64,000 nucleotides of DNA from a bacterium (GCA_031441465.1 JANOEP010000072.1:15018-79017), one strand, 5' to 3'; counted from the first letter of the stretch, positions 4,196 to 62,205 are shown. Numbers and translations are program-made. Notes: a model not told the origin generated them from the sequence alone.

Positions 4196-4232
4196 GGGCG
4201 GCGGGGTTGCAGGGCGTGGCGGGCGATCTCGA

Positions 4233-4261
4233 TTTACACTGCAGGCGGTGCGGGGTATCCT
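4233..4261 (+). promoter_or_regulatory. Putative sigma70 promoter upstream of the cassette tract
   Basis: TTTACA-17 nt-TATCCT, read by eye. Confidence 0.35.
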
Positions 4262-4383
4262 TGGATGTCTATTGGTTGATAATCGTCAGGTATCGGCGTG
4301 GCGGCAGGTTGTGATTTCTCGGTATTGAGGTATTCAGGAAAACTTGCTGCTATATCTGGATACGTAGTTCAGCTTAAGTCATG

Positions 4384-4390
4384 GTTAGAT
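4384..4390 (+). mobile_element. Integron cassette left junction (core site GTTRRRY)
   Basis: GTTAGAT followed by RBS GAGGAG and ATG at 4412; its reverse complement ATCTAAC matches the downstream R'' ATCTAAG (5216-5222) at 6/7 positions. Confidence 0.6.
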
Positions 4391-4411
4391 TCAATGAGGA
4401 GCACGTGCTGC

Positions 4412-5203
4412 ATGCGTAGAATCTCTTTGTGGCTTTCCATTGCGGTAGTTCTCTGCGCGGCCGTCATGGCGAAATCAGGTGATTCGCCCCTGGACGGCTG
4501 CATGAGCCCGAGTGAATACAACAGCTTGAACCCCCCGTATCAAATAGAAGTCGTCCACTATCGTAACATCGTCTCCTTCGACATCTCTAAGGAGGGCGAT
4601 ACCTGGGCGATGATGAAAGACGGCCGAGGGCACCTGTGGATCTATCGGGACCGCAGGCAAATGCTATCTGCTCCAATTGCACCATGGGCACAAGACGGTA
4701 AGATGAGCTATCACTTCACTGTAAGTCGCGACTTCGTGGCTAGCGCTGTATTTCAGTTCGGATTCGGCCGCCACAGCGGGAAGATAATGCTCGGCGACTG
4801 GGCGGAGACTGATCCCCATTTCGACCTTTCACTCGAGCTTATCAATGCAACAATTCAAAAGGGCGGAGTCCTTCATGGCGAGTTCAAGATCGCTTGTTCA
4901 TCGAAGTACTGTTTGCAGTTTGGCAGTGACTGTATGTGGAATTACGAGATTGCGAATGCGCGCGGAGAAGTAGTTCTGCGACCCGGCGGTGCATGTGGGG
5001 AAACGCTTTGTCAGATGACGCTTGAACCGGGCGTGATCAAGTCGATCCCCTTTGCAATACCGACCGATGTTGGCCGATCCCTCGACGCAGGGGTTCTTCA
5101 AGATGGGTTTTTGCCAACCGGAGAGTACACGCTGACGGCCTATATGGAAGAGCACCGAGATATGCACCTCGAGGCTGCCGCTAAGATCACGATAACGCCA
5201 TGA
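4412..5203 (+). CDS. Secreted hypothetical protein, cassette-encoded; C-terminal half resembles a BsuPI-like Ig fold
   Basis: Signal peptide MRRISLWLSIAVVLCAAVMA; AT-richer codons; LQF..NYEI.NARGEVV...TLEPG...GEYTLTAY pattern (domain call tentative). Confidence 0.65.
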   Translation: MRRISLWLSIAVVLCAAVMAKSGDSPLDGCMSPSEYNSLNPPYQIEVVHYRNIVSFDISKEGDTWAMMKDGRGHLWIYRDRRQMLSAPIAPWAQDGKMSYHFTVSRDFVASAVFQFGFGRHSGKIMLGDWAETDPHFDLSLELINATIQKGGVLHGEFKIACSSKYCLQFGSDCMWNYEIANARGEVVLRPGGACGETLCQMTLEPGVIKSIPFAIPTDVGRSLDAGVLQDGFLPTGEYTLTAYMEEHRDMHLEAAAKITITP

Positions 5204-5215
5204 TCAACGGGCGGA

Positions 5216-5314
5216 ATCTAAGCATGGCTTGCAGCAGACGAAGCCACCCGTCACGTCGCTTGCTGGCGCAATCGCCGCGCCAGCCGTCTTCGCTGCTGAA
5301 ACGCGTCGTTAAAC
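5216..5314 (+). mobile_element. Integron attC site
   Basis: R'' ATCTAAG, 5 nt, L'' CTTGCAGC ... L' GCTGAAA, 6 nt, R' GTTAAAC; TT[G]CAGCAG[A]CGAAG pairs with CTTCGCTGCTGAA leaving two extrahelical bases; begins 13 nt after the stop codon. Confidence 0.85.
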
Positions 5315-5333
5315 ATAGTGGGAAGGCTCACAA

Positions 5334-5915
5334 TTGACCATCGACCTATTTAGCAGAATCAAGGGACAATTGGCGCAAGGACTCGCAGCCGCGCTGCTCG
5401 AAAACTACGCCTATAGAGTGATAAGGATCGGCATTGAAGAGCAATATTTCGAACTGAAGTTTCTTCCTCAGTCAGCCTATCTTGATCTGGGACTTCCGAA
5501 GCAGTTGAGGACGCTTCCGGATCTGTTAGTGACGACCCCAGATTGCCGTCGAGCCTGGATGGTCGAGGTGAAAATGCGCACCAGGCTCACAGGAGCCACA
5601 TTGCAGCAATTGGGGCAGTCACTGCGAGAACAAGCTGTCCTGTGGCCGGAAACGTACACGATTATCTTTCTTGGTCATGCATTTCGTTCAGAACGAGATT
5701 ACATTCAGGATCACCTGCGAGTAATCACGCCCGATAATATTGATATGTTGGTCGAATCCTCCACCGGAGCGGAGAGGAAGTGGGAAGCGCTTCCGATGCT
5801 TCATCATGTATTCGAATTGGTTGACGCCGGCGACTTCTTCACGCTTGCAGATCAGATAGTCCCGGCTATTCAGGCGCTTGGACTCAGTAGCCGCAACGAT
5901 GGGGCCACATCATGA
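5334..5915 (+). CDS. PD-(D/E)XK nuclease-fold protein
   Basis: PDLLV...WMVEVK motif; TTG start 20 nt after the attC core; AT-richer. Confidence 0.65.
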   Translation: MTIDLFSRIKGQLAQGLAAALLENYAYRVIRIGIEEQYFELKFLPQSAYLDLGLPKQLRTLPDLLVTTPDCRRAWMVEVKMRTRLTGATLQQLGQSLREQAVLWPETYTIIFLGHAFRSERDYIQDHLRVITPDNIDMLVESSTGAERKWEALPMLHHVFELVDAGDFFTLADQIVPAIQALGLSSRNDGATS

Positions 5916-6090
5916 CGGCACGGGCTTGACGGAAGTATGCAGCAGTCTCCGTCGTGTTCGGAGACTCAGTGATCTGTTCGCAGGAGAGGCGCTCGGCGCC
6001 TTGATCTGACGCGACATCCGCAGCTGGACGTCAATGCGATCGGCGTCGGGAATGATTACCCTATAGACCCAACCAACATCGGAGGTCCGA

Positions 6091-6477
6091 ATGCGAAGAG
6101 TCACAGGCATCGGCGGCATCTTCATGAGCGCCAAGGATCCCAAGGCGCTGTGCGAGTGGTACAAGAAGCACCTCGGGATCGACGTCCAGCCCTGGGGTGG
6201 CGCCGCCTTCGATTGGGTGGACGCCGAAGGCAACCCGACCAAGGGTACGACGGCCTGGTTGATCGGTCCGGCGGACGGCAAGCACTTCGCTCCGAGCAAG
6301 TCGACTTTCATGGTCAATTATCGAGTCGAGGATCTGGCGGCACTTCTCAAGGCCCTGCGCGAGGAAGGTTGCGACGTGCTCGAGAAGACCGACGACTCGG
6401 AGTACGGGAAATTCGGCTGGGTCATGGATCCGGAGGGCAACAAGGTCGAACTCTGGCAGCCGCTTCAAGGGCAATGA
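6091..6477 (+). CDS. VOC (glyoxalase/bleomycin resistance) family protein
   Basis: RVTGIGGIF..KDPKAL.EWY..HLG, NYRVEDL, YGKFGWVMDPEGNKVELWQP. Confidence 0.9.
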   Translation: MRRVTGIGGIFMSAKDPKALCEWYKKHLGIDVQPWGGAAFDWVDAEGNPTKGTTAWLIGPADGKHFAPSKSTFMVNYRVEDLAALLKALREEGCDVLEKTDDSEYGKFGWVMDPEGNKVELWQPLQGQ

Positions 6478-6504
6478 TGTTCGGTGACTCGCCAGGAGGG
6501 AAGA

Positions 6505-6582
6505 TATCGACCCCTCGCTCCACCGGGCACGCAATCGCCGGCTTTGCCCCCTGTCGGTCGTCGGCCAGCCCGGGCGTTGGGT
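6505..6582 (+). mobile_element. Degenerate attC-like site
   Basis: TATCGAC, 5 nt, GCTCCACC ... GGCCAGC, 6 nt, GTTGGGT; canonical attC spacing and a perfect GTTRRRY, but decayed pairing. Confidence 0.5.
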
Positions 6583-6694
6583 GACTTTGCGCGAGCTGTC
6601 TGGCATCGCACCTGACCCATCCGGCACCGGCAGGGTCGCGTCCGTTCGTAGCCGTACCCTCTGAACCGGTACTCCCGCACCAAAGGGAAACGCC

Positions 6695-7135
6695 ATGTCC
6701 GAAGTGTCGACCTTCAGGCTCTACCTGCTGAGGGCCATGTATCTGCTGATCGCCGTGGGGTTGGGGATCACGATATGGCCGGGCATCCTCTCCCCGCCCG
6801 AGAAATTGTCGCACATGAGCGGCGTGGTCCGCAGCGTGCTCGGGGCGGTCTCGCTCCTGGCGGTGTTGGGGCTCCGCTATCCCCTCCAGATGTTGCCGCT
6901 GCTGTTCTTCGAATTGCTGTGGAAGTCCATCTGGGTTCTCGCCTTCGGACTTCCCCTCTGGTCCGCTCGGCAATTGGACCCGAACACGCGGGAAACGCTG
7001 AACGCCTGTCTCATGGGCATCGTGTTGGTCCCACTCGTGATGCCCTGGGGGTACGTCTTCCGCAATTACCTGAAGGCTACCGGCGACCGGTGGGGCAGGC
7101 GCTCGGCATCGGAAAACAGACCCGGGAGGCGATGA
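6695..7135 (+). CDS. Hypothetical integral membrane protein (about 4 TM)
   Basis: RBS, ATG and four hydrophobic stretches; stop overlaps the next start. Confidence 0.75.
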   Translation: MSEVSTFRLYLLRAMYLLIAVGLGITIWPGILSPPEKLSHMSGVVRSVLGAVSLLAVLGLRYPLQMLPLLFFELLWKSIWVLAFGLPLWSARQLDPNTRETLNACLMGIVLVPLVMPWGYVFRNYLKATGDRWGRRSASENRPGRR

Positions 7136-7864: not shown

Positions 7865-8410
7865 TTACCGGTACAGCGCCTTGACCGTCCCGAACGACAT
7901 GGTCTCGTTCGGCACGGCCGCCTCGCAGGTGACGGTCAGCACGAGCTGATCGATCGTCAGGGTTTCGAAGCCCATCGGCATGCAGTGGATCATGTCGAAG
8001 TTGAAGCCGTGGTACTGGGCGATCGACAGGTCGGCCCGGCCGTCCTCGAGGAAGGACCAATCCGTCGGGTCCGCGCCGTTCACGAGCGTGACGGTCGCGT
8101 CGTACGGCTGCTGCAGGGGCGCCGTGAACCCTCCGCCGGCCGCGCCGTCCAGCGAGAAGTCCACCGTGTACTCCAGCCAGAAGTCGTAGCCCCACGGTTC
8201 GTCCATCATCTCGCACCAGCCATGCTGCCCGCCGCCGTAGCCGACGGCGTGGATCGACACGTCGGTCACGTTCACGAGCGTGACGCCGAGGTCGACCGGG
8301 ACCGTACCCGGGACGGGATGGTCGACGGTCCAGGTCACGGTCGCCGCGCCGACGGTCGTCGCGAACAGCACCGGGAACAGCAGAATGAACAACATGCGAG
8401 AGAAGGGCAT
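7865..8410 (-). CDS. Secreted hypothetical protein with C-terminal VPNETMSFGTVKALYR tail
   Basis: Signal peptide (LFILLFPVLFATTVGA), RBS GGAGG, tail shared with 51840 and 61231 ORFs. Confidence 0.8.
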   Translation of the reverse strand: MPFSRMLFILLFPVLFATTVGAATVTWTVDHPVPGTVPVDLGVTLVNVTDVSIHAVGYGGGQHGWCEMMDEPWGYDFWLEYTVDFSLDGAAGGGFTAPLQQPYDATVTLVNGADPTDWSFLEDGRADLSIAQYHGFNFDMIHCMPMGFETLTIDQLVLTVTCEAAVPNETMSFGTVKALYR

Positions 8411-8665: not shown

Positions 8666-11365
8666 ATGATCGGCAAGTCCCTGCTGCACTACGAGATCAA
8701 GAGCCTGCTCGGCAAGGGCGGCATGGGTGAGGTGTTCTGCGCGCGGGACACCAAGCTGGGCCGCGATGTGGCCGTCAAGATCCTCCCGCTCGAACTGAAC
8801 GGCGATCCGGAGCGCGAAGCCCGGTTTCAGCGGGAGGCGCGGGCCTTGGCCAGCCTGCAGCACCCCAACGTTGCCTCGGTCTACGGATTCGAGGAAGCGG
8901 AAGGGTGCCGCTTCCTGGTGATGGAACTGGTGGTGGGATCCGAACTGACGAAGCGGATGAGCGCGGGTCCCGTGCCGATCGCGGACGCCCTGAACATCGC
9001 CCGCCAGATCGCCGCGGGCCTGGAGGCGGCCCACGAGAACGGCATCGTCCACCGGGATCTCAAGCCGGCCAACATCATGGAGACGGCCGAGGGCGAGATC
9101 AAGATCCTGGACTTCGGCTTGGCCCAGGCCTGGTTCGGCGACGGCGTCCGCCAGGGCGAGTCCTCCATGACGCCGACCATCACCGCGGCCTTGAGCCAGG
9201 CGGGGGCCATCCTGGGCACGGCGGCCTACATGAGCCCGGAGCAGGCCCGGGGCGGCGCCGTGGACCGGCGCGCCGACATCTGGGCGTTCGGGGTCATCCT
9301 GTTCGAGATGCTGACGGGCAAGCGGCTCTTCCTCGGCGAGACCACGAGCGACACGCTGGCGGCGGTGCTGCGCGCCGAGCCGGAATGGGACTCCCTGCCC
9401 GTCGCCGAGGCGCCCGCCCTGTGCCGGCTGATCGAACGCTGCCTGGAACGGAATCCCAAGCAGCGGCTGCGCGACATCGGCGAGGCCCGCATCTTCCTTC
9501 AGGACGGCGACGCCAGCGGTTCCCACCTGAGTTTCTCCCACCTGGCGCCGGTGGCATCGTCCGCCGAATCCACCCGCGCCAGGACGCCGGCGCTCCTGCT
9601 GGCGGGTCTGGCCGTCGCGGGTCTGCTGGCCGGCTCGCTCGTGGGTTGGAAGGTGCTGGCCCGACCGGCGCCGCTCCCGGTCCTGCACGCCATGATTCCC
9701 CCGCCGGGGATCACGGACTACGAACTGAACTCCACGAATCCCGGTCCGGCGACCATCTCGCCGGACGGATCGATGCTGGCCTTCACCGCCACCGACACCG
9801 AAGGGGTGACCCGGCTCTACCTGCGGCACCTCGACCAGGGCGAGTCGGTCGGCCTGTCCGGCACCGAAAGCGCCGCGTACCCGTTCTGGTCCCCGGACAA
9901 CCGATTCCTCGGCTTCTTCGAGGCGGACGGCAAGAAGCTCAAGAAGATCGCCGTGACCGGCGGGCCGCCGGTGACCCTCTGCACCGCGGACAACGTCAAG
10001 GGCGGCTCCTGGAACGACCGCGGCGACATCATCTTCGCCCGCGGAGCCGACACCGGGATCTTCAGGGTGCCCGAGATCGGCGGCGAACCGGTCCGCATCA
10101 CCGCCGTCGGCCCGGATCACAATTCCCACCGGCATCCCCGGTTCCTGCCCGGCGGCCGGGAGTTCCTCTTCATCGGGCGCTCGACCAGCAGCGATCACGA
10201 CAACACCGTGTTCCTGGCGAACCTGGACACGACCGTCGTCCCGCGGGTCATCGCGACCTCGCAGGCCCACGCGGACTACGTCGACGGCTACCTGCTGACG
10301 GTGCGCGAGAACGTGCTGATGGCGACGCCCTTCACGCCGGACCAGAAGAGCGCGACCGCGGGCGGCGCCCCGCTGGTGGACAACGTCCTGACCATCCAGG
10401 GGGCGGTGGTCGGGTTGTTCAGCCCTTCGCCGACGGGCATGCTGGTCTTCCAGACGGGGGCCTCGGCCGAGGCCAGCCAGGTGTTGTCCTGGACCGACAT
10501 CGAGGACGGCAGTTCGCAACCTCTGGGCGACCTCGGCCAGATCTACCACCCGGCGATCGCTCCCGACGGGAAGCGCGCGGTCGTCGAGGTGCGCAACGCG
10601 TCGAACGAGGGCACGGACCTGTGGCTCGTCGACCTGGAGACGGGCTTGCGGACGCGCTTCACGTTCGCGCCCGGCGACGAGATCCGCGCCTGTTGGTCGC
10701 CGACCGGAAACTCCGTGTATTACGAGTCCAAGGAAGGGGGGAGCTTCCGCATCATGCAGCAGCCCGTGGAGGGACAGGGCGGCGCCGCCGTCCTGCTGGA
10801 GGCGGCGCGCGAGATCGCGGTCACCGGCGTGGGGGCGGGGGACCGCTCCATCCTGCTGGACTTCGAGCGTGAGGACGGGAAGTTCGAACTGCGGCGGATG
10901 TCCCTGGAAGCGGGCGGCGGCGCGATGACGACCGTGGCGACGGCGGCCGGGGTCAACCTGGGCGGCGGCGTCTACTCGCCCGACAACCGCTGGATCGCCT
11001 ACCACACCGAGACCGCCGCCGGCTGGGACATCTTCGTCATCCCCGCCACCGGCGGCGTGCGCAAGTGGCAAGTCAGCAGCGACGGCGCCGTCTACCCGAA
11101 GTGGAACCGCGACGGCACGGAACTGTGGGTTGTCCGCTTCAGCGGCGACCTCAACGCCTACGAGGTCGACGGCGCCGGCCAGACCTTCCGCGTGGGAAAA
11201 TCCCGCCGGGCGCTCAAGATCGCCTCGCCCGACGCCAGCGGCTGCTTCTACGACCTGCATCCGGACGGTCGGCGGATCCTCCAGACGGGGGCCGATCCGT
11301 CGTTCCGCTCCGAGGTCTCTTACCTGCACCTGGTCACCGACTGGAAGCGGGGGCTGGTCCAGTAG
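8666..11365 (+). CDS. Hanks-type Ser/Thr protein kinase with TM and TolB/PD40-like beta-propeller
   Basis: GKGGMGEV, VAVK, HRDLKPAN, DFG, YMSPE, DIWAFG; TM; repeated SPDG/WSPD/PKW motifs. Confidence 0.93.
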   Translation: MIGKSLLHYEIKSLLGKGGMGEVFCARDTKLGRDVAVKILPLELNGDPEREARFQREARALASLQHPNVASVYGFEEAEGCRFLVMELVVGSELTKRMSAGPVPIADALNIARQIAAGLEAAHENGIVHRDLKPANIMETAEGEIKILDFGLAQAWFGDGVRQGESSMTPTITAALSQAGAILGTAAYMSPEQARGGAVDRRADIWAFGVILFEMLTGKRLFLGETTSDTLAAVLRAEPEWDSLPVAEAPALCRLIERCLERNPKQRLRDIGEARIFLQDGDASGSHLSFSHLAPVASSAESTRARTPALLLAGLAVAGLLAGSLVGWKVLARPAPLPVLHAMIPPPGITDYELNSTNPGPATISPDGSMLAFTATDTEGVTRLYLRHLDQGESVGLSGTESAAYPFWSPDNRFLGFFEADGKKLKKIAVTGGPPVTLCTADNVKGGSWNDRGDIIFARGADTGIFRVPEIGGEPVRITAVGPDHNSHRHPRFLPGGREFLFIGRSTSSDHDNTVFLANLDTTVVPRVIATSQAHADYVDGYLLTVRENVLMATPFTPDQKSATAGGAPLVDNVLTIQGAVVGLFSPSPTGMLVFQTGASAEASQVLSWTDIEDGSSQPLGDLGQIYHPAIAPDGKRAVVEVRNASNEGTDLWLVDLETGLRTRFTFAPGDEIRACWSPTGNSVYYESKEGGSFRIMQQPVEGQGGAAVLLEAAREIAVTGVGAGDRSILLDFEREDGKFELRRMSLEAGGGAMTTVATAAGVNLGGGVYSPDNRWIAYHTETAAGWDIFVIPATGGVRKWQVSSDGAVYPKWNRDGTELWVVRFSGDLNAYEVDGAGQTFRVGKSRRALKIASPDASGCFYDLHPDGRRILQTGADPSFRSEVSYLHLVTDWKRGLVQ

Positions 11366-13541: not shown

Positions 13542-13718
13542 GCGTCGTCCCTCCGTCCGCCCGGTTCCGCCGCGCCCCGCGACGCTGCCGTACACTAGGG
13601 CCGAACGGACCGTCCGGCAAGCGGTTCGCGCAATTGGTGATTGCCTGGCCCGGCGCGATTCCCTAGACTCCGGCCTCGGTCCGGCGGGCCCTTCCGGTCG
13701 CGCCAGAAAGAAGTCCGC

Positions 13719-15218
13719 ATGACCCGGCAGATCTTCGCCCGCAAGCCGCTGCAGGAACTGCTCGACGACATGGCCGGCGACAACCGGCTGCGCCGTTGCC
13801 TGGGCCCCGTCACCCTCACCAGCTTGGGCATCGGCGCCGTCATCGGGGCCGGCATCTTCGTGGCCACCGGCGAGGCGGCGCGCAACGTCGCCGGCCCGGC
13901 CCTGATGCTCTCCTACGCCGTGGCCGGGATCACCTGCATCTTCGCCGCCCTCTGCTACGCCGAGTTCGCCTCGATGGCGCCGGTGGCCGGCAGCGCCTAC
14001 ACCTACGCCTACGTCACCCTCGGGGAGCTGGGCGCCTGGATCATCGGCTGGGACCTCGTCCTGGAGTACGCCGTCGGCTCGGCCACGGTGGCCAACGGCT
14101 GGTCCAGCTACTTCCAGGAGGTGCTCAGCAGCTTCGGCTGGCATCTGCCGGAATCCATGCGCGGCGCGGCGCTGCACTTCGACGCCGTTTCCGGGCATTT
14201 CGTGCGGACGGGCTCGTACGTCAACCTGCCGGCGGTGCTGGCCACCATGGTGGTCACGGCCGTGCTGATCAAGGGCATCAAGGAGAGCGCGAGATTCAAC
14301 GCGGTGATGGTCGGCATCAAGGTGGCGGCAGTGCTCTTCGTGATCATCGTCGGGGCGTTCTACGTCGACCCCGCCAACTGGACGCGAGATTTCGCCCCCT
14401 ACGGCTGGACGGGCGTCGGCTTCTTCGGCATCCCGCTCTTCGGGCAGACATCCGCCGGCGGGACACCCGTGGGCATGCTCGCCGGCGCGGCGATCATCTT
14501 CTTCGCGTTCATCGGCTTCGACTCCGTCTCCACGCACGCCGAGGAGGCGCGCAACCCGAAGCGCGACGTGCCGATCGGCATCATCGTCTCGCTGCTGGTC
14601 TGCACGATCCTGTACATCGCCGTGGTGACCGTCATGACCGGGATGGTGCCCTACGACCAGATCGACGCCAACGCCGGCGTCTCGCAGGCCTTCGCGCAAC
14701 GCGGCCTGGGGCACGCGCGCTTCATCATCGCCGCGGCCGGCGTGGCCGGCATCACGTCCGTGCTGCTGGTCCTGATGCTCAGCGCGCCGCGCGTGATGCT
14801 GGCCATGGCCCGCGACGGGCTCATCTCGCCGAAATTCTTCGGCGCCGTGCACCCGCGCTTCCAGACGCCCTGGAAGAGCACGCTGGCCGTCGGCGCGTTC
14901 GTCACCGTGCTCGCCGGGTTCCTGCCCATCGACGCCCTGCTGCACATGACCAACATCGGCACGCTGTTCGCCTTCGTGATCGTCTGCACCGCGGTGCTGG
15001 TCATGCGGAAGATCGAGCCCGAGGCCAAGCGGCCGTTCCGCTGCCCCTGGGTGCCGCTCGTGCCGTTGCTGGGGGTCGGTTCCTGCCTGATGCTGATGTT
15101 CTCCCTGCCCGTCGCCAACTGGTGGCGGCTGATCGTCTGGCTGGCGATCGGGCTGGTCATCTACTTCGCCTACGGCCGCCGCCACAGTCACATGCGCCGT
15201 CAGACGAACAAGCCCTGA
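13719..15218 (+). CDS. APC-family amino acid permease (cationic amino acid transporter-like)
   Basis: GIGAVIGAGIF, CYAEFASM.PVAGSAY.Y, FFAFIGFD, EEARNP, FRCPWVP. Confidence 0.93.
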   Translation: MTRQIFARKPLQELLDDMAGDNRLRRCLGPVTLTSLGIGAVIGAGIFVATGEAARNVAGPALMLSYAVAGITCIFAALCYAEFASMAPVAGSAYTYAYVTLGELGAWIIGWDLVLEYAVGSATVANGWSSYFQEVLSSFGWHLPESMRGAALHFDAVSGHFVRTGSYVNLPAVLATMVVTAVLIKGIKESARFNAVMVGIKVAAVLFVIIVGAFYVDPANWTRDFAPYGWTGVGFFGIPLFGQTSAGGTPVGMLAGAAIIFFAFIGFDSVSTHAEEARNPKRDVPIGIIVSLLVCTILYIAVVTVMTGMVPYDQIDANAGVSQAFAQRGLGHARFIIAAAGVAGITSVLLVLMLSAPRVMLAMARDGLISPKFFGAVHPRFQTPWKSTLAVGAFVTVLAGFLPIDALLHMTNIGTLFAFVIVCTAVLVMRKIEPEAKRPFRCPWVPLVPLLGVGSCLMLMFSLPVANWWRLIVWLAIGLVIYFAYGRRHSHMRRQTNKP

Positions 15219-16344: not shown

Positions 16345-17241
16345 ATGGCGGAGCAGAAGGGCAAGAGCGGCGACCAGCCGCTGCAGCCCATCATCGTCAT
16401 CAAAAAGGTTGTCGGGCACGGCCACCACGGCGGCGCCTGGAAGGTGGCGTACGCCGACTTCGTGACCTCGATGATGTCGCTGTTCATCGTGCTCTGGATC
16501 GTCAATCAGGACCAGGCGGTGAAGGAAGCGGTGGCCGGCTACTTCCGCGATCCCGGCGCGTTCCGAGCCTCGGGCGCCGGTGGCCCGCTGGGCGGCCAGT
16601 CGATCCTGCCCGAATCGGGCAAGGGGATCATGGAAGGGATGCAGGCAGAGGCGAAGCGCCTGCTGGAGGAAGCGGCCACCGAGCTGCGCGAGCAGCTGTC
16701 CGGCATGGAGCACTTCGAGCAGATCATGAAGCAGGTCGAGATCAAGATGACCGACTCGGGGCTCAACATCCAGATGGTCGAGATGTCGAACTCGCTGTTC
16801 TTCGACGTGGGCAGCGCGAACCTCAGCGCGGCCGCCGAGGAAGTGCTCCAGGTCCTGGCGCGGCAGCTCAGCAAGCTGCCCAACAAGCTCGTGATCGAGG
16901 GGCACACGGACAGCCGGCCCTATCCCGCCGGCGGCGGCTACAGCAACTGGGAACTGTCGACCGAGCGCGCCAACTGTGCCCGCCGCTACATGATCAGCCA
17001 CGGCCTGCCCGGCGAGCAGGTGGCCGAGGTCAGCGGCTACGCCGACACGCGCCTGCGCCACCCCGAGGATCCGGCCGACGTCGGCAACCGCCGCATCAGC
17101 ATCACGGTCCTCTACCAGGACGGTCAGATGCCCTGGTCGTCGGGCGACGCGGGAGCGGCGCCCGGTGACGGGGAGCGCCTGCCCCAGAGCCAGAACACCG
17201 GCACCCCCAGCCCCACGATCAGCAACCCCGGCCACGAGTAG
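16345..17241 (+). CDS. motB: Flagellar motor stator protein MotB
   Basis: HHGGAWKVAYADF (conserved Asp), OmpA-like domain GHTD, NWELS..RA, NRR. Confidence 0.9.
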   Translation: MAEQKGKSGDQPLQPIIVIKKVVGHGHHGGAWKVAYADFVTSMMSLFIVLWIVNQDQAVKEAVAGYFRDPGAFRASGAGGPLGGQSILPESGKGIMEGMQAEAKRLLEEAATELREQLSGMEHFEQIMKQVEIKMTDSGLNIQMVEMSNSLFFDVGSANLSAAAEEVLQVLARQLSKLPNKLVIEGHTDSRPYPAGGGYSNWELSTERANCARRYMISHGLPGEQVAEVSGYADTRLRHPEDPADVGNRRISITVLYQDGQMPWSSGDAGAAPGDGERLPQSQNTGTPSPTISNPGHE

Positions 17242-18629
17242 CGGGGCTTGACGATCAGCAGGTCCACGCAGATCGCCACCGCGGCCAGCACGTACAGGGC
17301 CGGCAGCACCGGGTAGCCCGGCGCGCGCCAGCTCCGTACGGCCGTCGGCCGACGCCGCCGCAGCACGAAGATCCCCACCACCGACAGCGCGTAGAAGATC
17401 AGCACCGCGAAGATGACGTAGTCGAGCAGGTCGCCGTAGCGCCCGGTCAGGCAGAGCAGGCAGGCCCAGACGCCCTGCATGACCAGCGCGGCGGCGGGCA
17501 CGCGACGGCGGTTGAGCTTGCCGGTGCTGCGGAAGAAGAGACCGTCGTGCGCCATCGCGTAGTAGACGCGGGCGCCGGTCAGGATCATGCCGTTGTTGCA
17601 GCCGAAGGTGCTGATCATCACCAGCACCGCCATGATCGCGGCGGCGACCGGACCCAGGATCGTCGAGGCGGCCGCGGTGCCGACGCGGTCGGCGGTCGCG
17701 AACTGCAGCCCGCGCCCGGCCGCGTCCAGGGCGGCGGGGTCGCCGGCCACCGGCAGGGCCAGGATGTAGACCAGGTTCGTCAGCATGTAGACGACGACCA
17801 CGATGGCGACGCCCACCACCAGGGCGCGCGTGATCGTCCGCTGCGGGTTCACGGTCTCGCCGCTGGTGAAGGTGACGTTGTTCCAGGCGTCGCAGGCGAA
17901 GAGCGAACCGACCGACGCCGCGCCCAGGGCCATGAGCAGGCCGATCCCGGTCAGGGCCTCGCGCGTGACCGTCCCGTCGGCGCCCACGATCGTCCGGCTC
18001 GCCGACCACATGTCGTGGAAGTTCGCCGCGATCGCCCCGGCGTGGCGCCCCAGCGCCAGGCCGCAGACGACCAGCACGAGCAGGGCCGCCACCTTGGCGA
18101 CGGTGAAGCTGTCCTGGACGAGCTTGCCCTCGCGCAGGCCGAGCGTGTTGAGCCAGGTCAGCAGGGCGATGCTGGCGATGGCGACCAGCTGCGCCGCGTT
18201 GACGTCCAGGCCGCCGACCGACAGCAGCACGTGCTGCTCGCCCAATGACGGCGCCAGCAGCGCGAGGTGTTTGGCGAAGGCCATGCCCACTGCCGCGATC
18301 GAGCCGGTCTGGATCACCATGAACAGCGTCCAGCCGTAGAGGAAGCCGGTCAGCCTGCCGAACGATTCGCGCAGGTAGACGTACTGGCCGCCGGCCTGCG
18401 GCATCAGCGCCGCCAGCTCGCCGTAGCACGCCGCGCCCAGCAGCGTCACCAGGCCGCTGAACAGCCAGACCGCCATCAGCCAGCCCGTCGAGCCCACGCT
18501 GCGGGCGATGTCGGCGCTGACGATGAAGATGCCCGAGCCGATCATCACGCCCACCACGATCATCACCGCGTCGAAGAGGCGGATGTCCCGCTTGAACCCG
18601 GGCGCGCCCGGCGTCTTCTGATCGTGCAT
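17124..18629 (-). CDS. APC-family amino acid permease
   Basis: IVVGVMIGSGIF, CYGELAALMPQAGGQYVYL, DAWNN, RVYYAMA; RBS GGAGG before ATG 18629. Confidence 0.92.
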   Translation of the reverse strand: MHDQKTPGAPGFKRDIRLFDAVMIVVGVMIGSGIFIVSADIARSVGSTGWLMAVWLFSGLVTLLGAACYGELAALMPQAGGQYVYLRESFGRLTGFLYGWTLFMVIQTGSIAAVGMAFAKHLALLAPSLGEQHVLLSVGGLDVNAAQLVAIASIALLTWLNTLGLREGKLVQDSFTVAKVAALLVLVVCGLALGRHAGAIAANFHDMWSASRTIVGADGTVTREALTGIGLLMALGAASVGSLFACDAWNNVTFTSGETVNPQRTITRALVVGVAIVVVVYMLTNLVYILALPVAGDPAALDAAGRGLQFATADRVGTAAASTILGPVAAAIMAVLVMISTFGCNNGMILTGARVYYAMAHDGLFFRSTGKLNRRRVPAAALVMQGVWACLLCLTGRYGDLLDYVIFAVLIFYALSVVGIFVLRRRRPTAVRSWRAPGYPVLPALYVLAAVAICVDLLIVKPRYSWPGLLIVGLGVPVFWLWGRRSPSPGAAPASPDDQGI

Positions 18630-18804
18630 GTAGTACCTCCGGATCGCCGGCGGGCGGAGCGGCCCGCGTGGGCGTGGCCCCATTGGAAGCGGGGCGCGCC
18701 GGTTTGGCAAGAGGGGAGTGGCCGCGCGTGGCGCAGATCCCGATTGCCATCCCGGCGCCGCGCCGCCAAGATCGGCGGGAATCGTCCACCGGCCGGGAGG
18801 CGTC

Positions 18805-21459: not shown

Positions 21460-21512
21460 CGTCCGTCACGGACCCATCGCGCACCGGCCGTGCCCCTCGG
21501 TCGCCGCCCAGA

Positions 21513-21569
21513 GGACCGCATCCCGTCATCGGGACCAGATCCCCATCTCGGGACCGCATCCCCATTTCC
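21513..21569 (+). repeat. Three imperfect 19-bp direct repeats in the 5' leader
   Basis: GGACCGCATCCCGTCATCG / GGACCAGATCCCCATCTCG / GGACCGCATCCCCATTTCC, ending just before the RBS GGAGG. Confidence 0.7.
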
Positions 21570-21582
21570 CGGAGGCCGCCCC

Positions 21583-23541
21583 TTGCCCCGCCCCGGCAGC
21601 ACCGCCCGCCTCGCCCTCGTCGCCGCTCTGTGCGGCGTCCTGTGCTTCTGCTGCGCCGGGCCGGCCGGCGCCATCCCGCGCACCGAGCTGGTGGCCAACG
21701 CGGGCATCATCGGGTTGACGATCACGAATCTCGGCTACGTCGGCAACGGGCTCTCCATTCCCTACCAGCCCTCGTGCGAGTACCCGCTCAACAGCCACGT
21801 CGAGCACCTGTTCATCGGCGGCCTCTGGGTCGGCGCCATGACGCCGGAGGGGCTGCGCCGCGTGTCGACCGGCGCCCAGGACGCTTCGAGCCTGACAAAC
21901 GGCGAGGACAACCGCGAGTTCACCGACTCCATCACGCAGGACGTGCAGGTCTGGTCCAACACGCAGAACAGCGACGACTACAACCCCGCCGCCCTGGCCA
22001 CGCAGCACATCGAGTGCTACTTCCACGACGACAAGTACGACGAGACCGGCAACCACACGCCGCTGTTCGTCAAGGTCATCCTGCGCGCGCTGTCCTGGAG
22101 CAGTTCGTACGCGGACGACTTCATCGTCCTGGACTACCGCATCATCAACGATTCGGGCAGCGAGCTGCGCGACGTGTACGTCGGCTACTGGAACGACACC
22201 ACCGTCGGCAACACGACGGTCACCGTGCCTTCCGGCTACGGCGGCGGCGCTGCGCGCCCCTGGCAGTTCTACGACGACATGAACGGCGGCTGGCGTCCGG
22301 GCGACGTCGCCGACGATCCCGGCCTCTGGATGATGTACGAGCACGACGATGACGGCGAAGAGGGGATGGCCACGTCCTGGATCGGGGCGCGCCTGCTGGG
22401 CGCCGTGCCGGCCCCCACGCCGGCCTCGGGCATGCCGCCGGTGATCTACAACAGTTGGCGCTTCGGGTCAGTGCCCGACGAGGACGATACCTACATCGTC
22501 GACGGCGAGACGGAGGCGCGGCCCGGCAAGTACCAGATGCTCTCCAACGGCGATTTCGACGCCGGCGGCGACTTCTCCTACCCCGGCAACTGGAACGGCC
22601 TGCTCGCGACCGGCCCGTTCCCCAACCTCGCCCCCGGCGACACCCTGCAGGTGACCTACGCCGTGGTCTGCGGCGCCGACTCCCTGAACCTGCTGGCCAA
22701 CGCCAAGGTGGCCCAGGTGGCCTACGACTCGGGCTTCGCGATCCCGACCGGCCCGCCCTCGCCGCGGCTGGGGCTGGAGTACGAGGACAACACGATCGTG
22801 CTGGCCTGGGCCCCCGGCGACTCCGTCGCCCTGGACGACCAGGGCGAGCCCGTGCCCCTGCTGTCCGACGACCCGCGTCGCTCCCCCGAGCACCACATCA
22901 GCATCATCACCCACCGGCCCGACTTCCAGGGCTACCGGATCTTCCGCTTCCAGGGCGAGTCCTTCGGTGGCGACCCCTACGAGCAGTCGACCATGGTGGC
23001 CCAGTTCGACAAGATCGACGGCATCGGCTTCGACACCGGGCTGCCGCCGGTCGGCGCCGACGGCAAGCGGCGCTTCCGCGACACCTCGCTGCTCGACGGC
23101 TTCGGCTACTGGTACTCCGTGGTCTCCTTCTCCGCCCCGGACGTGGTCTCCAGCCTGCCGGAGTTCCAGAGCGGTTACTACGAGAACGCGACGCTGGTCT
23201 ACCCCGGTCCGGCCCCCCAGCCGCTGGGCGAAGGCCGGGGCGTGGGCGTCTTCCCGAACCCGTACCGGGTCGCCTCGCGCTTCGACGACCAGCAGGGCGA
23301 GCAGGAGCTGGGCCGCAAGCTCTGGTTCACCGGTCTGCCGGCCCGCTGCGTCATCAAGGTCTTCAACCTCAACGGCGACCTGGTCAAGACCTTGAACCAC
23401 GACGACCCGGCCTCGGGCCTCGAGTCCTGGAACATCCTGAGCGAGCCGGTGCGCGCCATCGCGTCGGGCCTCTACATCTTCGCCGTGGAGGATCTCGCCA
23501 CCGGCAAGGTGGAACGCGGGAAGCTGGTGATCGTGAAATGA
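21583..23541 (+). CDS. Secreted protein with T9SS-like/FlgD-Ig C-terminal domain
   Basis: TTG after GGAGG; signal peptide; C-terminus VFPNPY...IKVFNLNGDLVKTL...WN...IASGLYIFAV...GKLVIVK. Confidence 0.8.
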   Translation: MPRPGSTARLALVAALCGVLCFCCAGPAGAIPRTELVANAGIIGLTITNLGYVGNGLSIPYQPSCEYPLNSHVEHLFIGGLWVGAMTPEGLRRVSTGAQDASSLTNGEDNREFTDSITQDVQVWSNTQNSDDYNPAALATQHIECYFHDDKYDETGNHTPLFVKVILRALSWSSSYADDFIVLDYRIINDSGSELRDVYVGYWNDTTVGNTTVTVPSGYGGGAARPWQFYDDMNGGWRPGDVADDPGLWMMYEHDDDGEEGMATSWIGARLLGAVPAPTPASGMPPVIYNSWRFGSVPDEDDTYIVDGETEARPGKYQMLSNGDFDAGGDFSYPGNWNGLLATGPFPNLAPGDTLQVTYAVVCGADSLNLLANAKVAQVAYDSGFAIPTGPPSPRLGLEYEDNTIVLAWAPGDSVALDDQGEPVPLLSDDPRRSPEHHISIITHRPDFQGYRIFRFQGESFGGDPYEQSTMVAQFDKIDGIGFDTGLPPVGADGKRRFRDTSLLDGFGYWYSVVSFSAPDVVSSLPEFQSGYYENATLVYPGPAPQPLGEGRGVGVFPNPYRVASRFDDQQGEQELGRKLWFTGLPARCVIKVFNLNGDLVKTLNHDDPASGLESWNILSEPVRAIASGLYIFAVEDLATGKVERGKLVIVK

Positions 23542-37026: not shown

Positions 37027-37045
37027 GCCGGGGACGGGGAGGACC

Positions 37046-39854: not shown

Positions 39855-41312
39855 GTGACCACCTACGAGAGCCTGCAGCCCCGGTCCGTCTGGAGCATCT
39901 TCGCCGAACTGTCCCGCATCCCCCGCGGCTCCGGCAACGAGGCCGCGGTCCTGGACATGCTCAAGGCCTGGGCCGACGCCCGCGGCCTGAAGTGGAGCCA
40001 GGACCAGGTGGGCAACCTCCTGGTGCGCATCCCGGGCACGCCGGGCCGCGAGCAGGCCGCGCCGGTGCTCGTGCAGGGGCACGTCGACATGGTCTGCGAG
40101 AAGAACGGCGCCACGAAGCACGACTTCGCCAAGGACCCGATCAAGCTCCTGGTTGCCGACGGCTGGGTGACGGCCGACGGCACCACGCTGGGCGCGGACA
40201 ACGGCATCGGCGTGGCCATGGGGCTCGCCTTGGCCGACGAGAAGGGGCTCAAGCACCCCCCGGTGGAAGTGCTGCTGACCGTCGACGAGGAGCGCGGCCT
40301 GACCGGCGCGGCCGGCGTCGAGCCGGGCTTCTTCAGCGCCCGCCGCATGATCAACCTCGACTCCGAGGAGGACCGCTCCCTGTTCATCGGCTGCGCCGGC
40401 GGACGCGACTCGGTCATCACCGTGAAGAACAAGAAGAGCGCGCTGGGCAAGGGGCTCGTCGGGCACAAGGTCGTCGTGTCCGGCCTCAAGGGCGGGCACT
40501 CCGGCCTGGACATCGACAAGAACCGCGGCAACGCGATCAAGATCCTCGCCCGCCTGCTGCTGGCCGCGCGCGAGACGGTGCCCTTCAAGCTCGTGGACTT
40601 CGACGGCGGCAGCATGCGCAACGCCATCCCGCGCGAGGCCACGGCCCGCGTGGCGGTGCCCGAAGCGCAGGCCGGCGCCTTCAAGAAGCTCGTCGACAAG
40701 GCGGCGGCGGCGCGCATCCTGAGCGAGGAACTGGCCGGCATCGACGACCTGGCGTCCGTGAAGGTCGCCAAGTGCAAGGTGGACCACAGCCTGGGCGGCA
40801 ACTGCACCCTGCGCGTCCTGCGCCTGATCGAGGCGCTGCCCAACGGCGTGCTGGCCATGAGCCAGGCCATCCCGGGACTGGTCGAGACCAGCTCCAACGT
40901 GGGCGTGGTGAAGACCAAGGGGACCACGGTGGAGCTGGTCTGCTGCAGCCGCTCCTCGAACATGTCGGCCCTGGACGGCCTCGTGCAACGCCACCGGACC
41001 ATCGTCGCCCTGCTGGACGACCGGGCCGCGATCGAGCAGCCCGAAGGCTACCCCGGCTGGCAGCCGAACCCGGCCTCGCTGCTGGTGCAGGCCACGGCGC
41101 GCACCTACGAGCGGATCTTCAAGGTCGTGCCGGAGCTGAAGGCGATCCACGCCGGTCTGGAGTGCGGCCTGCTGACCGAGAAGTACCCGGACCTGGACAT
41201 CGTCTCCTTCGGCCCGGACATCCACGGCGCCCACTCGCCCGACGAGAAGGTGAGCGTGGCCTCGGTCGCGAAGGTCTGGCAGCTGTTCACCGGGGTGATG
41301 AGCGAACTCTAG
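39855..41312 (+). CDS. pepD: Aminoacyl-histidine dipeptidase (M20C)
   Basis: QGHVDMVCEK, GTTLGADNGIG, TVDEERGLTGA, NLDSEE, IHAGLECG. Confidence 0.95.
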   Translation: MTTYESLQPRSVWSIFAELSRIPRGSGNEAAVLDMLKAWADARGLKWSQDQVGNLLVRIPGTPGREQAAPVLVQGHVDMVCEKNGATKHDFAKDPIKLLVADGWVTADGTTLGADNGIGVAMGLALADEKGLKHPPVEVLLTVDEERGLTGAAGVEPGFFSARRMINLDSEEDRSLFIGCAGGRDSVITVKNKKSALGKGLVGHKVVVSGLKGGHSGLDIDKNRGNAIKILARLLLAARETVPFKLVDFDGGSMRNAIPREATARVAVPEAQAGAFKKLVDKAAAARILSEELAGIDDLASVKVAKCKVDHSLGGNCTLRVLRLIEALPNGVLAMSQAIPGLVETSSNVGVVKTKGTTVELVCCSRSSNMSALDGLVQRHRTIVALLDDRAAIEQPEGYPGWQPNPASLLVQATARTYERIFKVVPELKAIHAGLECGLLTEKYPDLDIVSFGPDIHGAHSPDEKVSVASVAKVWQLFTGVMSEL

Positions 41313-49430: not shown

Positions 49431-49563
49431 CGGGGCCTCCAGCCTCGTGAGGGTCGCGAGAGCCAAGGATTGAGTGTGGCGGGTACTCGATTCTAGCATG
49501 TCCGGCAGATTGATGCCAGAACTCGGTTTTTGTCGTTCAGAGGGGTTGTGGATTCGCGTCCTG

Positions 49564-51240: not shown

Positions 51241-51849
51241 ATGGTCGGCATGAACAGCTGGGACGACAAATACGCTGCCGAACGCTACTACTACGGCACC
51301 GAGCCCAACGAGCTGGTGCGGGACGCGATCGCCGGTCTGCCGACCGGCCGGGCCCTGTTCCTGGCCGAGGGGGAGGGCCGCAACGCCGTCCACGCCGCCT
51401 CCCTGGGCCACGAGGTCGTCGCGGTGGACTCGTCGGCCGAAGGCCGCCGCAAGGCGCTGGCCCTGGCCGCCGAGCGCGGCGTGACCCTGACCTACCTCCT
51501 GGGCGATGTCGAGGTCACGGACTGGGACGACGCCCCCTACGACCTGGCCGTGCTCTGCTTCTTCCACAACGCGCCCGCCGCGCGCGCCCGCATCCACGCC
51601 CGCGTCGCCGCGGCGCTGCGGCCGGGCGGCCGGCTGGTCGTGGTCGCGTTCGCGAAGGAGCAGTTCGGCCGCGGCACCGGGGGGCCGCGGGATCTCGAAC
51701 TCCTGCAGGATCTCACCGAGGTGTGCGGGGATTTCCCGGGCGTGACCTGGGAGCGGACCGAGCGGCTGGAGGTCGTCCAGCGCGAGGGTCCCGGCCACGA
51801 CGGGGCGGCGTCGGTGAACCTGCTGGTGGGGACCGCCGGTCAGCGGTAG
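51241..51849 (+). CDS. Class I SAM-dependent methyltransferase (TehB-like)
   Basis: WDDKY....YYYGTEPN, LFLAEGEGRNAV; start may be 51250. Confidence 0.88.
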   Translation: MVGMNSWDDKYAAERYYYGTEPNELVRDAIAGLPTGRALFLAEGEGRNAVHAASLGHEVVAVDSSAEGRRKALALAAERGVTLTYLLGDVEVTDWDDAPYDLAVLCFFHNAPAARARIHARVAAALRPGGRLVVVAFAKEQFGRGTGGPRDLELLQDLTEVCGDFPGVTWERTERLEVVQREGPGHDGAASVNLLVGTAGQR

Positions 51850-52508
51850 GCGGCTTTGATGGTGGACCAGCTTCCCGACTGCGCCGCGACGGTGCCCTCG
51901 TAGACGATGACCAAGCGCGGCGGGATCGCGTAGGCCGTACCCCCCACGGAAATCCAGTCCTCGTAGCCCACTTCGGAGTACACGCCGGCCAGCAGGAAGC
52001 CCGCCCGCGCCGCGCCGCCGGCGACGAGATCCTGCACCGCCGCGGTGACGTCGAAACTCAGATCGACGTTGGCCGACGACGGGAACACCACATCCAGCAT
52101 GGTGTCGGGGCTCAGCGCGTTGCGGTCCACCGAGACCGGTTCGCCCGTCGCCGGGTAGTCGAAGACGCCGACGTAGGGGAAGCCCTCGGAGTCGTCGGAG
52201 TAGCCGGTCTTGCGGACCGTCAGCGTGGCTGAGATCACCGGCTGCTGGGCCGGCACGGCGTCGAGACTGAACTCCAGGCTGGTCGCCCACTCCGAGTCGC
52301 AGCCCGCCGCCTCGCCCCCGATCTTCAGGTGCAGGGCGGTTGAGACGGTGCCGGCCGTGAATTTCGTTTCCTGGAGGCAGGCGCCGGCGCTCTCCTCGCG
52401 CTCGTCGTCGCCGCACTGCAAGGGGGGGATGGTGGCGGTGTCGGAGGCTGATGAAGTTGCCGCTATGACGATGAGCAGATAGCAAAGCAGCGAGATCTTG
52501 TGAAACAT
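51840..52508 (-). CDS. Secreted hypothetical protein (DNRLRE-like fold, tentative) with C-terminal SWSTIKAAYR tail
   Basis: Signal peptide; EFSLDAVP....ISATLT, FDVTAAVQ...GFLL, PPRLVIVY; shared tail. Confidence 0.75.
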   Translation of the reverse strand: MFHKISLLCYLLIVIAATSSASDTATIPPLQCGDDEREESAGACLQETKFTAGTVSTALHLKIGGEAAGCDSEWATSLEFSLDAVPAQQPVISATLTVRKTGYSDDSEGFPYVGVFDYPATGEPVSVDRNALSPDTMLDVVFPSSANVDLSFDVTAAVQDLVAGGAARAGFLLAGVYSEVGYEDWISVGGTAYAIPPRLVIVYEGTVAAQSGSWSTIKAAYR

Positions 52509-52520
52509 GGATCCCCAATT

Positions 52521-53672: not shown

Positions 53673-53685
53673 GCAACCACCTACC

Positions 53686-55754: not shown

Positions 55755-55791
55755 GCGACGGCCTTTCGCCGGAGTGAAGTGGACGGGCCGG

Positions 55792-56604: not shown

Positions 56605-56640
56605 GGTCTGTCTCCTCATGGTCGGTCTCCTCATGGTAGG
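56596..56640 (-). repeat. 15-bp tandem repeat carrying ATG plus Shine-Dalgarno
   Basis: ACCATGAGGAGAC(C/A)G units; ATGs at 56634, 56619 and 56604. Confidence 0.75.
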
Positions 56641-61230: not shown

Positions 61231-62205
61231 CTAACGGTAGAAGGACTTGATGGTGCCCCAGGCCGTCGTCTCGTTGGGGACGATCCCGTCCGTGCAGACC
61301 GACTGCAGGAAATAGAACCCGTCGAATTCGCCCGACGGGGGCTGGGCGGCGTCCACGGCCAGGTAGTAGGTGTGGCGAGCGCCGGTGAGGTTGCGGTAGA
61401 CGAGGACTTCCGACGTTCCGGAGACGCCGTCGTCGGCGAAGGCGACGCAGTCGGCCGTCGCTTCGCAGCCGTCGAAGAGCCACAGCGCGGCGTCGAAGGA
61501 CTGCTCCTGCAGCGTGAGCGTCGCCCGGGCGCTGTCGGCCAGGCTCACCGCGTACCAACGTTCGCCGCCCGCCTCGAGGTACTCCGCGCAGGTATTCGTG
61601 AAGAGCTGGTTGGGCAGGCCGTAGAGGCTGCCCTCTGCGGTGGCGGCCTCCGTCCGGCAGAGCAGGGGCGTGGCGGTCGCGCAGACCTCCGGCGGCACCC
61701 CCGAGGCGAAGGCCCGCACCGTCAGGCTCCAGGGGCCGGCGGCGCCCAGGTAACCATCGATCACCACGACCCAGGGGTCGAGCCGGCCTTCGACCTCGAC
61801 CTCGAACTCGCGGGTGTGGTGGGCCACGCACAGGTCGCTGTCGCAGCCCGAGAGCAGGAAGAGGTCCAGGTCGACGGTGGATTCCAGGATCAGGTGCAGC
61901 GTGACCGGGGAAGGGACGTCCAACAGCAGCACCGACTCGGGGCCGCTCTCGTTCCAGCCGACGCAGCCGTAGCCGTCGACGACCGAGGCGCCGGCTGTGG
62001 TGTCGCCGGTGATCACGGTGTCCAGGCCCGGGGCGACGGTCAGGACGGGGGCGCTGGCGCAGCCGGGGTCGCCGGCGCGCAGGGTGGAGGAGGGGGGGAG
62101 GTCGGGGCGGTCGGTGGTCTTGGGGACGCGGAAGGAGGGGGGGGCGGCCGCAGCGGCCGTCACCAGGCACAAGGCCAAGGCGGCGCAGAACTTGCTTGCT
62201 CTCAT
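61231..62205 (-). CDS. Secreted protein with two Cys-rich PPC-like repeats and C-terminal AWGTIKSFYR tail
   Basis: Signal peptide; duplicated unit C.....C...E......DL(D/A)L(F/W)L..GC....C; shared tail. Confidence 0.8.
   Translation of the reverse strand: MRASKFCAALALCLVTAAAAAPPSFRVPKTTDRPDLPPSSTLRAGDPGCASAPVLTVAPGLDTVITGDTTAGASVVDGYGCVGWNESGPESVLLLDVPSPVTLHLILESTVDLDLFLLSGCDSDLCVAHHTREFEVEVEGRLDPWVVVIDGYLGAAGPWSLTVRAFASGVPPEVCATATPLLCRTEAATAEGSLYGLPNQLFTNTCAEYLEAGGERWYAVSLADSARATLTLQEQSFDAALWLFDGCEATADCVAFADDGVSGTSEVLVYRNLTGARHTYYLAVDAAQPPSGEFDGFYFLQSVCTDGIVPNETTAWGTIKSFYR

Follow-up and report, generated by a model that had tools for sequence, protein, structure and literature searches.

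A conserved C-terminal tail on unrelated, putatively exported proteins of uncultured bacteria: an apparently uncurated motif with a probable sorting role

Three tail-bearing genes in a 64-kb window

The window described here is the whole of a 64-kb stretch of bacterial DNA (GCA_031441465.1 JANOEP010000072.1:15018-79017) with a guanine-plus-cytosine (GC) content of 68.6%, in which three open reading frames (ORFs) on the minus strand share one ending, [SA][WF][GS]T[IV]K[AS]xYR followed by the stop. No similarity could be detected among the bodies of the three encoded proteins, and BLAST clustering keeps them in three groups. This ending, called the tail below, is a real, widespread and apparently uncurated C-terminal motif, probably of the sorting type, with an architecture unlike known families. 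Tail positions are counted from the C-terminus, the last residue being -1. The three genes and their parts are as follows.

7865..8410, minus strand: tail protein 1, 181 residues, with a signal peptide, a predicted beta-sandwich body without known family, and the tail
7868..7918, minus strand: tail 1, AVPNETMSFGTVKALYR, then the stop TAA at 7865-7867; 33.4 bits against the tail profile
8345..8410, minus strand: signal peptide of protein 1, MPFSRMLFILLFPVLFATTVGA, of approximate extent, from sequence reading and a hydrophobic-window heuristic
51840..52508, minus strand: tail protein 2, 222 residues, with a signal peptide, a DNRLRE-like body and the tail
51843..51893, minus strand: tail 2, TVAAQSGSWSTIKAAYR, then the stop TGA; 26.5 bits against the tail profile
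61231..62205, minus strand: tail protein 3, 324 residues from ATG, with a signal peptide, two beta-sandwiches like the collagen-binding domain (CBD) of collagenase, a linker and the tail
61234..61284, minus strand: tail 3, IVPNETTAWGTIKSFYR, then the stop TAG; 31.2 bits against the tail profile

A Sec-type signal peptide was recognised at the N-terminus of all three proteins by sequence reading and the hydrophobic-window heuristic. For protein 3, the start at 62205 is that of the database cluster P0006, while ORF calling gives a GTG at 62220. Protein 1 has no Pfam or NCBIfam match and only three database homologues (69-76% identity), all of which keep the tail. Protein 2 matches the DNRLRE model NF033679 with 30 bits, under the 34-bit cut-off, and protein 3 has 60 homologues, every one of them named 'hypothetical'.

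A loose regular expression for the tail, applied to all of the window in all six reading frames, found these three ORFs only, and each match stands directly before the stop. A profile of 127 tails, mostly from other genomes and including the three of this window, gave the three ORFs 26-33 bits and the other 564 of the 567 window ORFs 5.4 bits or less. On the DNA level, a pattern for the tail matched the window twice, compared with 0.00 matches expected from 100 shuffles. The preliminary description, which had reported three unrelated signal-peptide proteins with the same tail, was therefore confirmed at all three places, and no other place in the window was added to them. Pairwise nucleotide identity among the three tails is only 46-65%, and third codon positions are 33-67% identical; because of this divergence, the conservation is placed on the peptide and not on a repeat in the DNA. 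A DNA repeat or a mobile cassette as the origin of the tail was ruled out by the same divergence.

Distribution, carriers and anatomy of the tail

Outside the window the tail was found to be widespread. One genome per bacterial and archaeal species was scanned with a back-translated core, [AS]WGx[VIM]K[AS]xYR with CGN as the Arg codon, followed by TRR. At least 117 stretches of these species-representative genomes carry the pattern, where about 8 would be expected by chance (the author's estimate, for uniform base composition). A genuine stop codon closes every one of the 120 pattern matches listed, and TGG, which the pattern would have accepted, closes none; the same pattern found no match in 2.9 million viral contigs. 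Furthermore, a profile of 28 tails, built from the window and the sequences with P identifiers, reached at least 321 clusters at E<=0.001 among 1.84 billion representative proteins, a lower bound for a motif so short; a plant protein with leucine-rich repeats (P0145) was discarded as a false positive of the profile. A word-indexed protein search with the tail profile, a method unsuited to a motif of this length, returned 18 candidates and one match.

The position of the motif is nearly fixed. The six-frame translation of 889 kb contains 157 motif matches, with 149 directly before a stop, 7 followed by one or two extra residues, and 1 internal; the 31 matches that had not been selected by the DNA pattern include 23 terminal and 7 nearly terminal ones. 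Among the new representatives from the profile search, about 135 of 144 have the motif at the C-terminus or a few residues short of it, and one to four extra residues after YR are tolerated. The claim of a C-terminal position holds for about 95% of the matches, at or near the end, and gives way in one lipoprotein family, described below, with tandem, internal and N-terminal copies.

The tail had been described as lineage-specific, which was not upheld, since at least seven named candidate or FCB-type (Fibrobacteres-Chlorobi-Bacteroidetes) phylum-level groups carry it. Judged from the record titles of 66 of the 117 loci, the other 51 having no taxon in the title, the matches listed comprise Eisenbacteria (27), Krumholzibacteriota (19), Fibrobacteraceae-labelled records (8), Gemmatimonadota (4), Latescibacterota (3), Coatesbacteria (2), UBP1 (2) and Verrucomicrobiia (1). 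Carriers cluster strongly by taxon. The 20-kb flanks of divergent orthologues were also scanned for lineage 'dialects' of the tail, and few extra tails were found there.

From full-length sequences, 126 carriers were grouped by BLAST into 65 body clusters, and 120 of the 126 have a Sec-type N-terminus, 22 showing a lipobox-like motif; start codons were picked by a heuristic that favours signal peptides, and the resulting N-termini look typical. The supposition that the tail stands on unrelated proteins with signal peptides is thereby substantiated. The bodies include Pmp-repeat beta-helices, InhA-like MAM, pectate lyase and lamin-tail domains, DUF4440/SnoaL-like and DNRLRE proteins, and CBD-like folds. 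The carriers are small proteins of at most 465 residues (median 240), compared with a median of about 750 residues for the ORFs that bear a type IX secretion system (T9SS) C-terminal domain (CTD).

Lipoproteins of the DUF4440/SnoaL-like kind are the only family seen with non-terminal copies of the tail, and its members carry two to five copies. Four or five tandem copies close P0067 (locus L120, 10001-10819) and P0114 (locus L121, 4617-5468), P0072 and P0079 have one copy after the signal peptide and one at the end, P0070 has one after each of two repeated domains, and P0169 is another member with multiple copies. Because tandem, internal and N-terminal copies exist, the tail is regarded as a self-contained unit without an absolute need for a free C-terminus. 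These multi-copy lipoproteins could be high-avidity cargo, a decoy or an adaptor. A separate case is a DUF4397 protein (locus L124, 16388-17167, minus strand), which ends ATVATDGATWSEMKAMFE, tail-like with Glu in place of the terminal Arg, and is possibly a decayed or variant tag.

The tail unit can be written [VST]-[PAS]-[VTA]-E-x-x-[SA]-W-G-x-[IV]-K-[AS]-[LM]-Y-R-COOH and spans about 16 residues. Its start follows directly on the cysteine or strand with which the body closes, with conservation setting in at about -17 and cysteine enriched at -18 to -21 among carriers. Several positions are conserved though the search pattern did not impose them, namely L/M at -3, E at -13, V/T/A at -14, P/A/S at -15 and V/S/T at -16. 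The last 10 residues have a net charge of +2.1. Within the orthologues of protein 3 the tail drifts (SWGTIKSFYR, SFGDIKAMFR, SLGSVRALFR, SAGGLKRLFR), with W replaced by F, L or A, K by R, and Y by F or W; Lys and Arg interchange at -5 in many of them. A deeper rule in this family is hydrophobic-G-x-hydrophobic-[KR]-x-hydrophobic-aromatic-R, in which the terminal Arg is nearly fixed. The consensus first proposed thus describes a real motif and was written too tightly, as the W, K and Y substitutions within a single orthologous family reveal. Constraint is found at nearly every position of the tail, -7 excepted, and a protein reader therefore fits better than generic lipid binding.

An AlphaFold2 model of protein 3 (54 homologues) was obtained with a mean predicted local distance difference test score (pLDDT) of 91.8, and its best fold match in the PDB is the tandem collagen-binding domain of ColG. 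In this model the last strand of the body runs to residue 306, residues 307-315 form a linker, in which residues 310-312 have a pLDDT below 50, and a short helix is formed by residues 316-321 (WGTIKS) at a pLDDT of about 70. The model of protein 1, from a shallow alignment, has a body mostly of beta-strand, while residues 170-181 have a pLDDT below 50 and lie without secondary structure outside the fold. The models suggest that the tail lies beyond the folded body and may form a short helix carried by a flexible linker; the linker and short helix envisaged earlier agree with the model of protein 3, and the view that the tail contains neither a transmembrane helix nor an Ig-like domain was borne out. 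The hydrophobic moment of the tail at 100 degrees is 0.47, compared with 0.36 +/- 0.16 for shuffled sequences.

In 13 carriers, no model of Pfam-A or NCBIfam 20.0 covers the tail, not even at E<=10, and the tail profile found no meaningful match among PDB sequences, in line with the earlier suggestion that the signal is undescribed. Every source name encountered for a tail protein is 'hypothetical protein'. Searches of the literature for sorting signals, for T9SS in these phyla and for the motif strings of the tail yielded no description of it, though others may have noticed it before. Outcomes named beforehand as speaking against an export tag, that is few matches, internal or cytoplasmic carriers, or a known family behind the motif, did not appear: the matches are many, signal peptides prevail among the carriers in the proportion given above, and no characterised family explains the motif.

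Genomic surroundings and coexisting T9SS domains

The gene of protein 3 is located between a gene for a Wzx-type flippase and that of topoisomerase VI B, and this synteny is kept in several metagenome-assembled genomes (MAGs). The conserved order (window 55110-63692; L123-L128, from differently labelled phyla) leads from a Wzx/Wzy/Wza/GT4/SPOR-ATPase polysaccharide locus to the protein 3 family and topoisomerase VI B, and continues with an M32 carboxypeptidase, topoisomerase VI A, an M48 peptidase and NUDIX. The two topoisomerase genes, whose archaeal type is notable in itself in these bacteria, lie in the window at the following places.

59427-61115, minus strand: topoisomerase VI B
~56631-57880, minus strand: topoisomerase VI A

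Two of the three window carriers are linked to surface-polysaccharide genes, a link that is family-specific. The gene of protein 2 adjoins the genes of a GDSL-like (52521-53750) and an MBOAT (53686-55113) acyltransferase. A locus from a Latescibacterota-labelled bin, L064, has 92% DNA identity to window 55109-62156; the GDSL-like and MBOAT genes are absent from this otherwise matching locus, where tail genes 2 and 3 are closer to each other. The GC content is lower at the GDSL/MBOAT region 52448-55109 (61% in 52-54 kb), and window 52448-55109 looks like an indel of an O-acylation cassette.

The divergent neighbour of tail gene 1 encodes a Ser/Thr kinase with PD40 repeats (window 8666-11365, plus strand), and an extracytoplasmic function (ECF) sigma factor together with a kinase containing tetratricopeptide repeats (TPR) is located directly upstream of P0114 (L121 1245-4560). 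An association of TPR or PD40 kinases with tail genes was nevertheless rejected, kinase domains being present in only 4 of the 117 loci among the matches listed. A low-GC island (55% versus about 69%) occupies window 4200-6700, just upstream of tail gene 1, and its ORFs at 4298-5203, 5334-5915 and 6061-6696 have no Pfam match. Peptidase genes (M16, M1, M20, M14, M48, M32) are dense in the window at 34402-39124, 39855-41312, 46812-49499 and 55792-59395, and two amino-acid permeases are encoded at 13641-15218 and 17124-18710; given this peptidase density and the two permeases, a protein-degrading lifestyle fits.

Tail loci are crowded with proteins that end in a FlgD_ig-type domain. One of them is encoded in the window at 46812-49499 (minus strand), an M14 zinc carboxypeptidase of 895 residues with an InhA-like MAM/choice-of-anchor J domain, whose C-terminal FlgD_ig domain passes the T9SS model TIGR04183 with 27.3 bits (cut-off 23); the organism of the window therefore uses CTDs of the T9SS type beside the short tail. 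Beta-helix bodies align end to end, and the one at locus L027 continues into a domain of about 95 residues that is TIGR04183-positive (34.2 bits, cut-off 23), while other beta-helix homologues continue into the 16-residue tail instead. Since the same beta-helix body ends either in the tail or in a T9SS type A domain, the tail holds the slot of a known sorting domain. The CTDs of these loci end [RK][KR]-four hydrophobic residues-[RK]-COOH, with R or K as the last residue in 31 of 37, a feature not imposed by the search, and faintly resemble the K-[AS]-[LM]-[YF]-R-COOH of the tail. A 683-residue ORF of strong coding signal and without Pfam or NCBIfam match (window 21490-23541, plus strand) ends GKVERGKLVIVK, which resembles these local CTD ends but fails the model.

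Possible function and comparison with known systems

An autonomous tag of about 16 residues, by which exported proteins would be sorted to or docked in the cell envelope and which would be read by an envelope receptor, is the interpretation preferred here, and it is given roughly an even chance of being right. A carrier would first cross the inner membrane by Sec and lose its signal peptide, as its N-terminus implies, and its often cysteine-rich body would then fold. The flexible linker [VST]-[PA]-x-E-x-x would present a basic stretch some 10 residues long, S-W-G-x-[IV]-K-[AS]-[LM]-Y-R-COOH, predicted to be a short helix. A conserved component of the envelope, most likely a protein that acts as receptor, would read this stretch, so that the carrier is routed to or held at the outer membrane or the surface. 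The extra copies in the one lipoprotein family would strengthen binding, and on account of the tandem copies, binding is favoured over a one-shot translocation. We infer Sec export, the existence and identity of a receptor, the destination and any cleavage of the tail, whereas the motif, its position and breadth, its independence from the body, its exchange with a T9SS domain and the lack of a curated model are established. Going further, the tail may tentatively be seen as a new class of bacterial sorting signal, though the balance lies against so broad a claim: a 16-residue C-terminal peptide, neither transmembrane nor folded, working by a logic like that of peroxisomal targeting signal 1 (PTS1), with a dedicated receptor or translocon common to Eisenbacteria, Krumholzibacteriota, Latescibacterota, Gemmatimonadota and their relatives, and operating alongside T9SS rather than through it.

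Several observations weigh against a receptor-read envelope tag. The hydrophobic moment of the tail is raised equally at 100-110 degrees (helix) and at 170-180 degrees (strand), and the helix of the model has only the modest pLDDT given above. No receptor, translocon or processing enzyme was identified in this sequence analysis, and the clustering of 3034 ORFs from the 117 loci listed disclosed no recurrent non-cargo neighbour of tail genes, the common neighbours having stemmed from orthologous loci or wrong-frame ORFs. The destination, be it the surface, the outer membrane or the periplasm, is guessed from the body types. Lipoproteins are already anchored, and for them the tail therefore cannot simply be the anchor. 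Moreover, every carrier comes from an uncultured MAG or a metagenome contig.

Among the rival explanations, a minimal T9SS signal, in which a drastically shortened CTD mimics the last strand (motif E) of a type A CTD and is recognised by a PorV/SprA-type reader, is considered unlikely. It would account for the abundance of FlgD_ig/TIGR04183 CTD proteins in the same genomes and loci, the window carboxypeptidase included, for the exchange of the tail with the TIGR04183 domain on one body, and for the basic terminal residue common to the tail and the local CTD ends; like the CTDs, the tail occupies the C-terminus of proteins with an N-terminal Sec signal peptide. Short CTDs of 40-55 residues are the smallest reported, and the last 22 residues of Hbp35 are reported to be enough for secretion in P. 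gingivalis (PMC11969387). The tail, with its 16 residues, is nevertheless far under the shortest reported CTD. It lacks the CTD beta-sandwich with motifs B, D (GxY) and E, only the last six residues resembling motif E, and the T9SS type A model (TIGR04183/PF13860-type) gave no match on 13 tail proteins at E<=10, while positive controls pass. Nor would one expect a translocation signal to occur in tandem or at the N-terminus. The lack of Bacteroidota in the 66 title-named loci among the matches listed points the same way and is a weak argument, given the CGN Arg codon in the pattern and the 51 loci without taxon.

A direct anchor in the plane of the membrane or in lipopolysaccharide, namely a short basic amphipathic helix with W and Y at the interface and snorkelling K and R, as in PBP5/6, would need no protein receptor. 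The net charge noted above, aromatic or hydrophobic residues at -9, -6, -3 and -2, the helix of the AlphaFold2 model, the tolerated swaps of K to R and W to F or L, and the stronger binding expected of tandem copies all fit such an anchor. It is judged rather improbable, because lipid-binding helices are rarely so conserved across phyla, with constraint on the upstream P-x-E, on G at -8, on a small residue at -4 and on the R at the very end, because the hydrophobic moment is only modestly above that of shuffled sequences without preference for a helix, and because ten residues make a very short anchor. More doubtful still is a signal for processing or turnover, in which the tail would be a propeptide or degron for a C-terminal processing protease or a carboxypeptidase and would set maturation or half-life instead of location; the strictly C-terminal position with a near-invariant terminal Arg, the flexible and potentially cleavable linker, and the many peptidases of the window, M14 and M32 carboxypeptidases among them, could be read in its favour. 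Degrons, however, seldom stay conserved over 65 unrelated families in different phyla, copies in tandem or at the N-terminus do not fit, residues after YR are tolerated, and the nearby peptidases are ordinary housekeeping types, unlinked to tail genes elsewhere. That the tail is no functional unit at all, and reflects chance, a DNA repeat found where genes end or the closing structural element of bodies that are related, is scarcely credible; this reading is refuted by the shuffles with their expectation of 0.00 matches, the divergence of third codon positions, the 65 unrelated body clusters, the place of the tail outside the folded body in both AlphaFold2 models and the strong clustering of carriers by taxon.

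The tags LPXTG, PEP-CTERM and the T9SS CTD each led to a dedicated machine and are routinely used to predict surface proteins. The tail marks hundreds of 'hypothetical' exported proteins, among them pectate lyases, adhesin-like beta-helices and binding modules, in several abundant uncultured phyla of soil, sediment and wastewater. A tail model would improve the annotation of those genomes and define a cargo set for phylogenetic profiling, and thereby offer a route to the reader. If the reader is not T9SS, a new envelope-sorting pathway would be at hand; if it is T9SS, the minimal T9SS signal would be redefined.

The receptor-read tag can be set beside several known systems. LPXTG/sortase, PEP-CTERM/exosortase, GlyGly-CTERM/rhombosortase and MYXO-CTERM/myxosortase likewise use short C-terminal tags on many unrelated exported proteins of a lineage. 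As in these tripartite signals, the tail starts with a proline-containing signature, V-P-x-E, and some carriers lie beside polysaccharide loci; unlike them, it lacks a transmembrane helix with a basic cluster behind it. The stretch after V-P-x-E is only about 10 residues long and contains a conserved Lys/Arg at -5, no NCBIfam CTERM model matches, and no sortase-like gene was seen near tail genes. The beta-signal of outer-membrane proteins, a terminal strand motif of beta-barrels with an aromatic last residue, differs as well, for the tail ends in Arg and the bodies are soluble beta-sandwiches or beta-helices. Lpp-type cross-linking to peptidoglycan through a C-terminal Lys was rejected, the terminal residue being Arg and the Lys at -5 often Arg in orthologues. 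Cargo peptides of encapsulins and microcompartments belong to cytoplasmic proteins without a signal peptide, while 120 of 126 carriers are of the Sec type. PBP5/PBP6-type amphipathic anchors resemble the tail in that a soluble, Sec-exported body ends in a short helix, but are weakly conserved in sequence and confined to one family, whereas sharp conservation of the tail extends over unrelated families and several phyla.

Three other systems also bear comparison. Like the tail, the T9SS type A CTD closes proteins that FCB-type bacteria export by Sec and that are often enzymes or resemble adhesins; the two occur in the same genomes, and both end basic-hydrophobic-basic-COOH; the tail differs in its 16 residues versus 70-100 (40-55 at the shortest reported), in having no beta-sandwich and in its smaller cargo. 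In the NCBIfam 'choice-of-anchor' families one body family is likewise combined with differing C-terminal sorting signals, as in the window, where the M14 protein joins choice-of-anchor J to a T9SS CTD while related MAM-like bodies carry the tail; those models describe bodies, and the tail motif is not among the listed anchor types. Peroxisomal PTS1 is a C-terminal SKL-type signal, eukaryotic and cytosolic, read by a TPR receptor. It has no sequence relationship to the tail and serves as an analogy only, in which a very short, strictly C-terminal peptide with a basic residue near its end, on folded and unrelated cargo, is read by a soluble or docking receptor and not by a membrane-embedded sortase.
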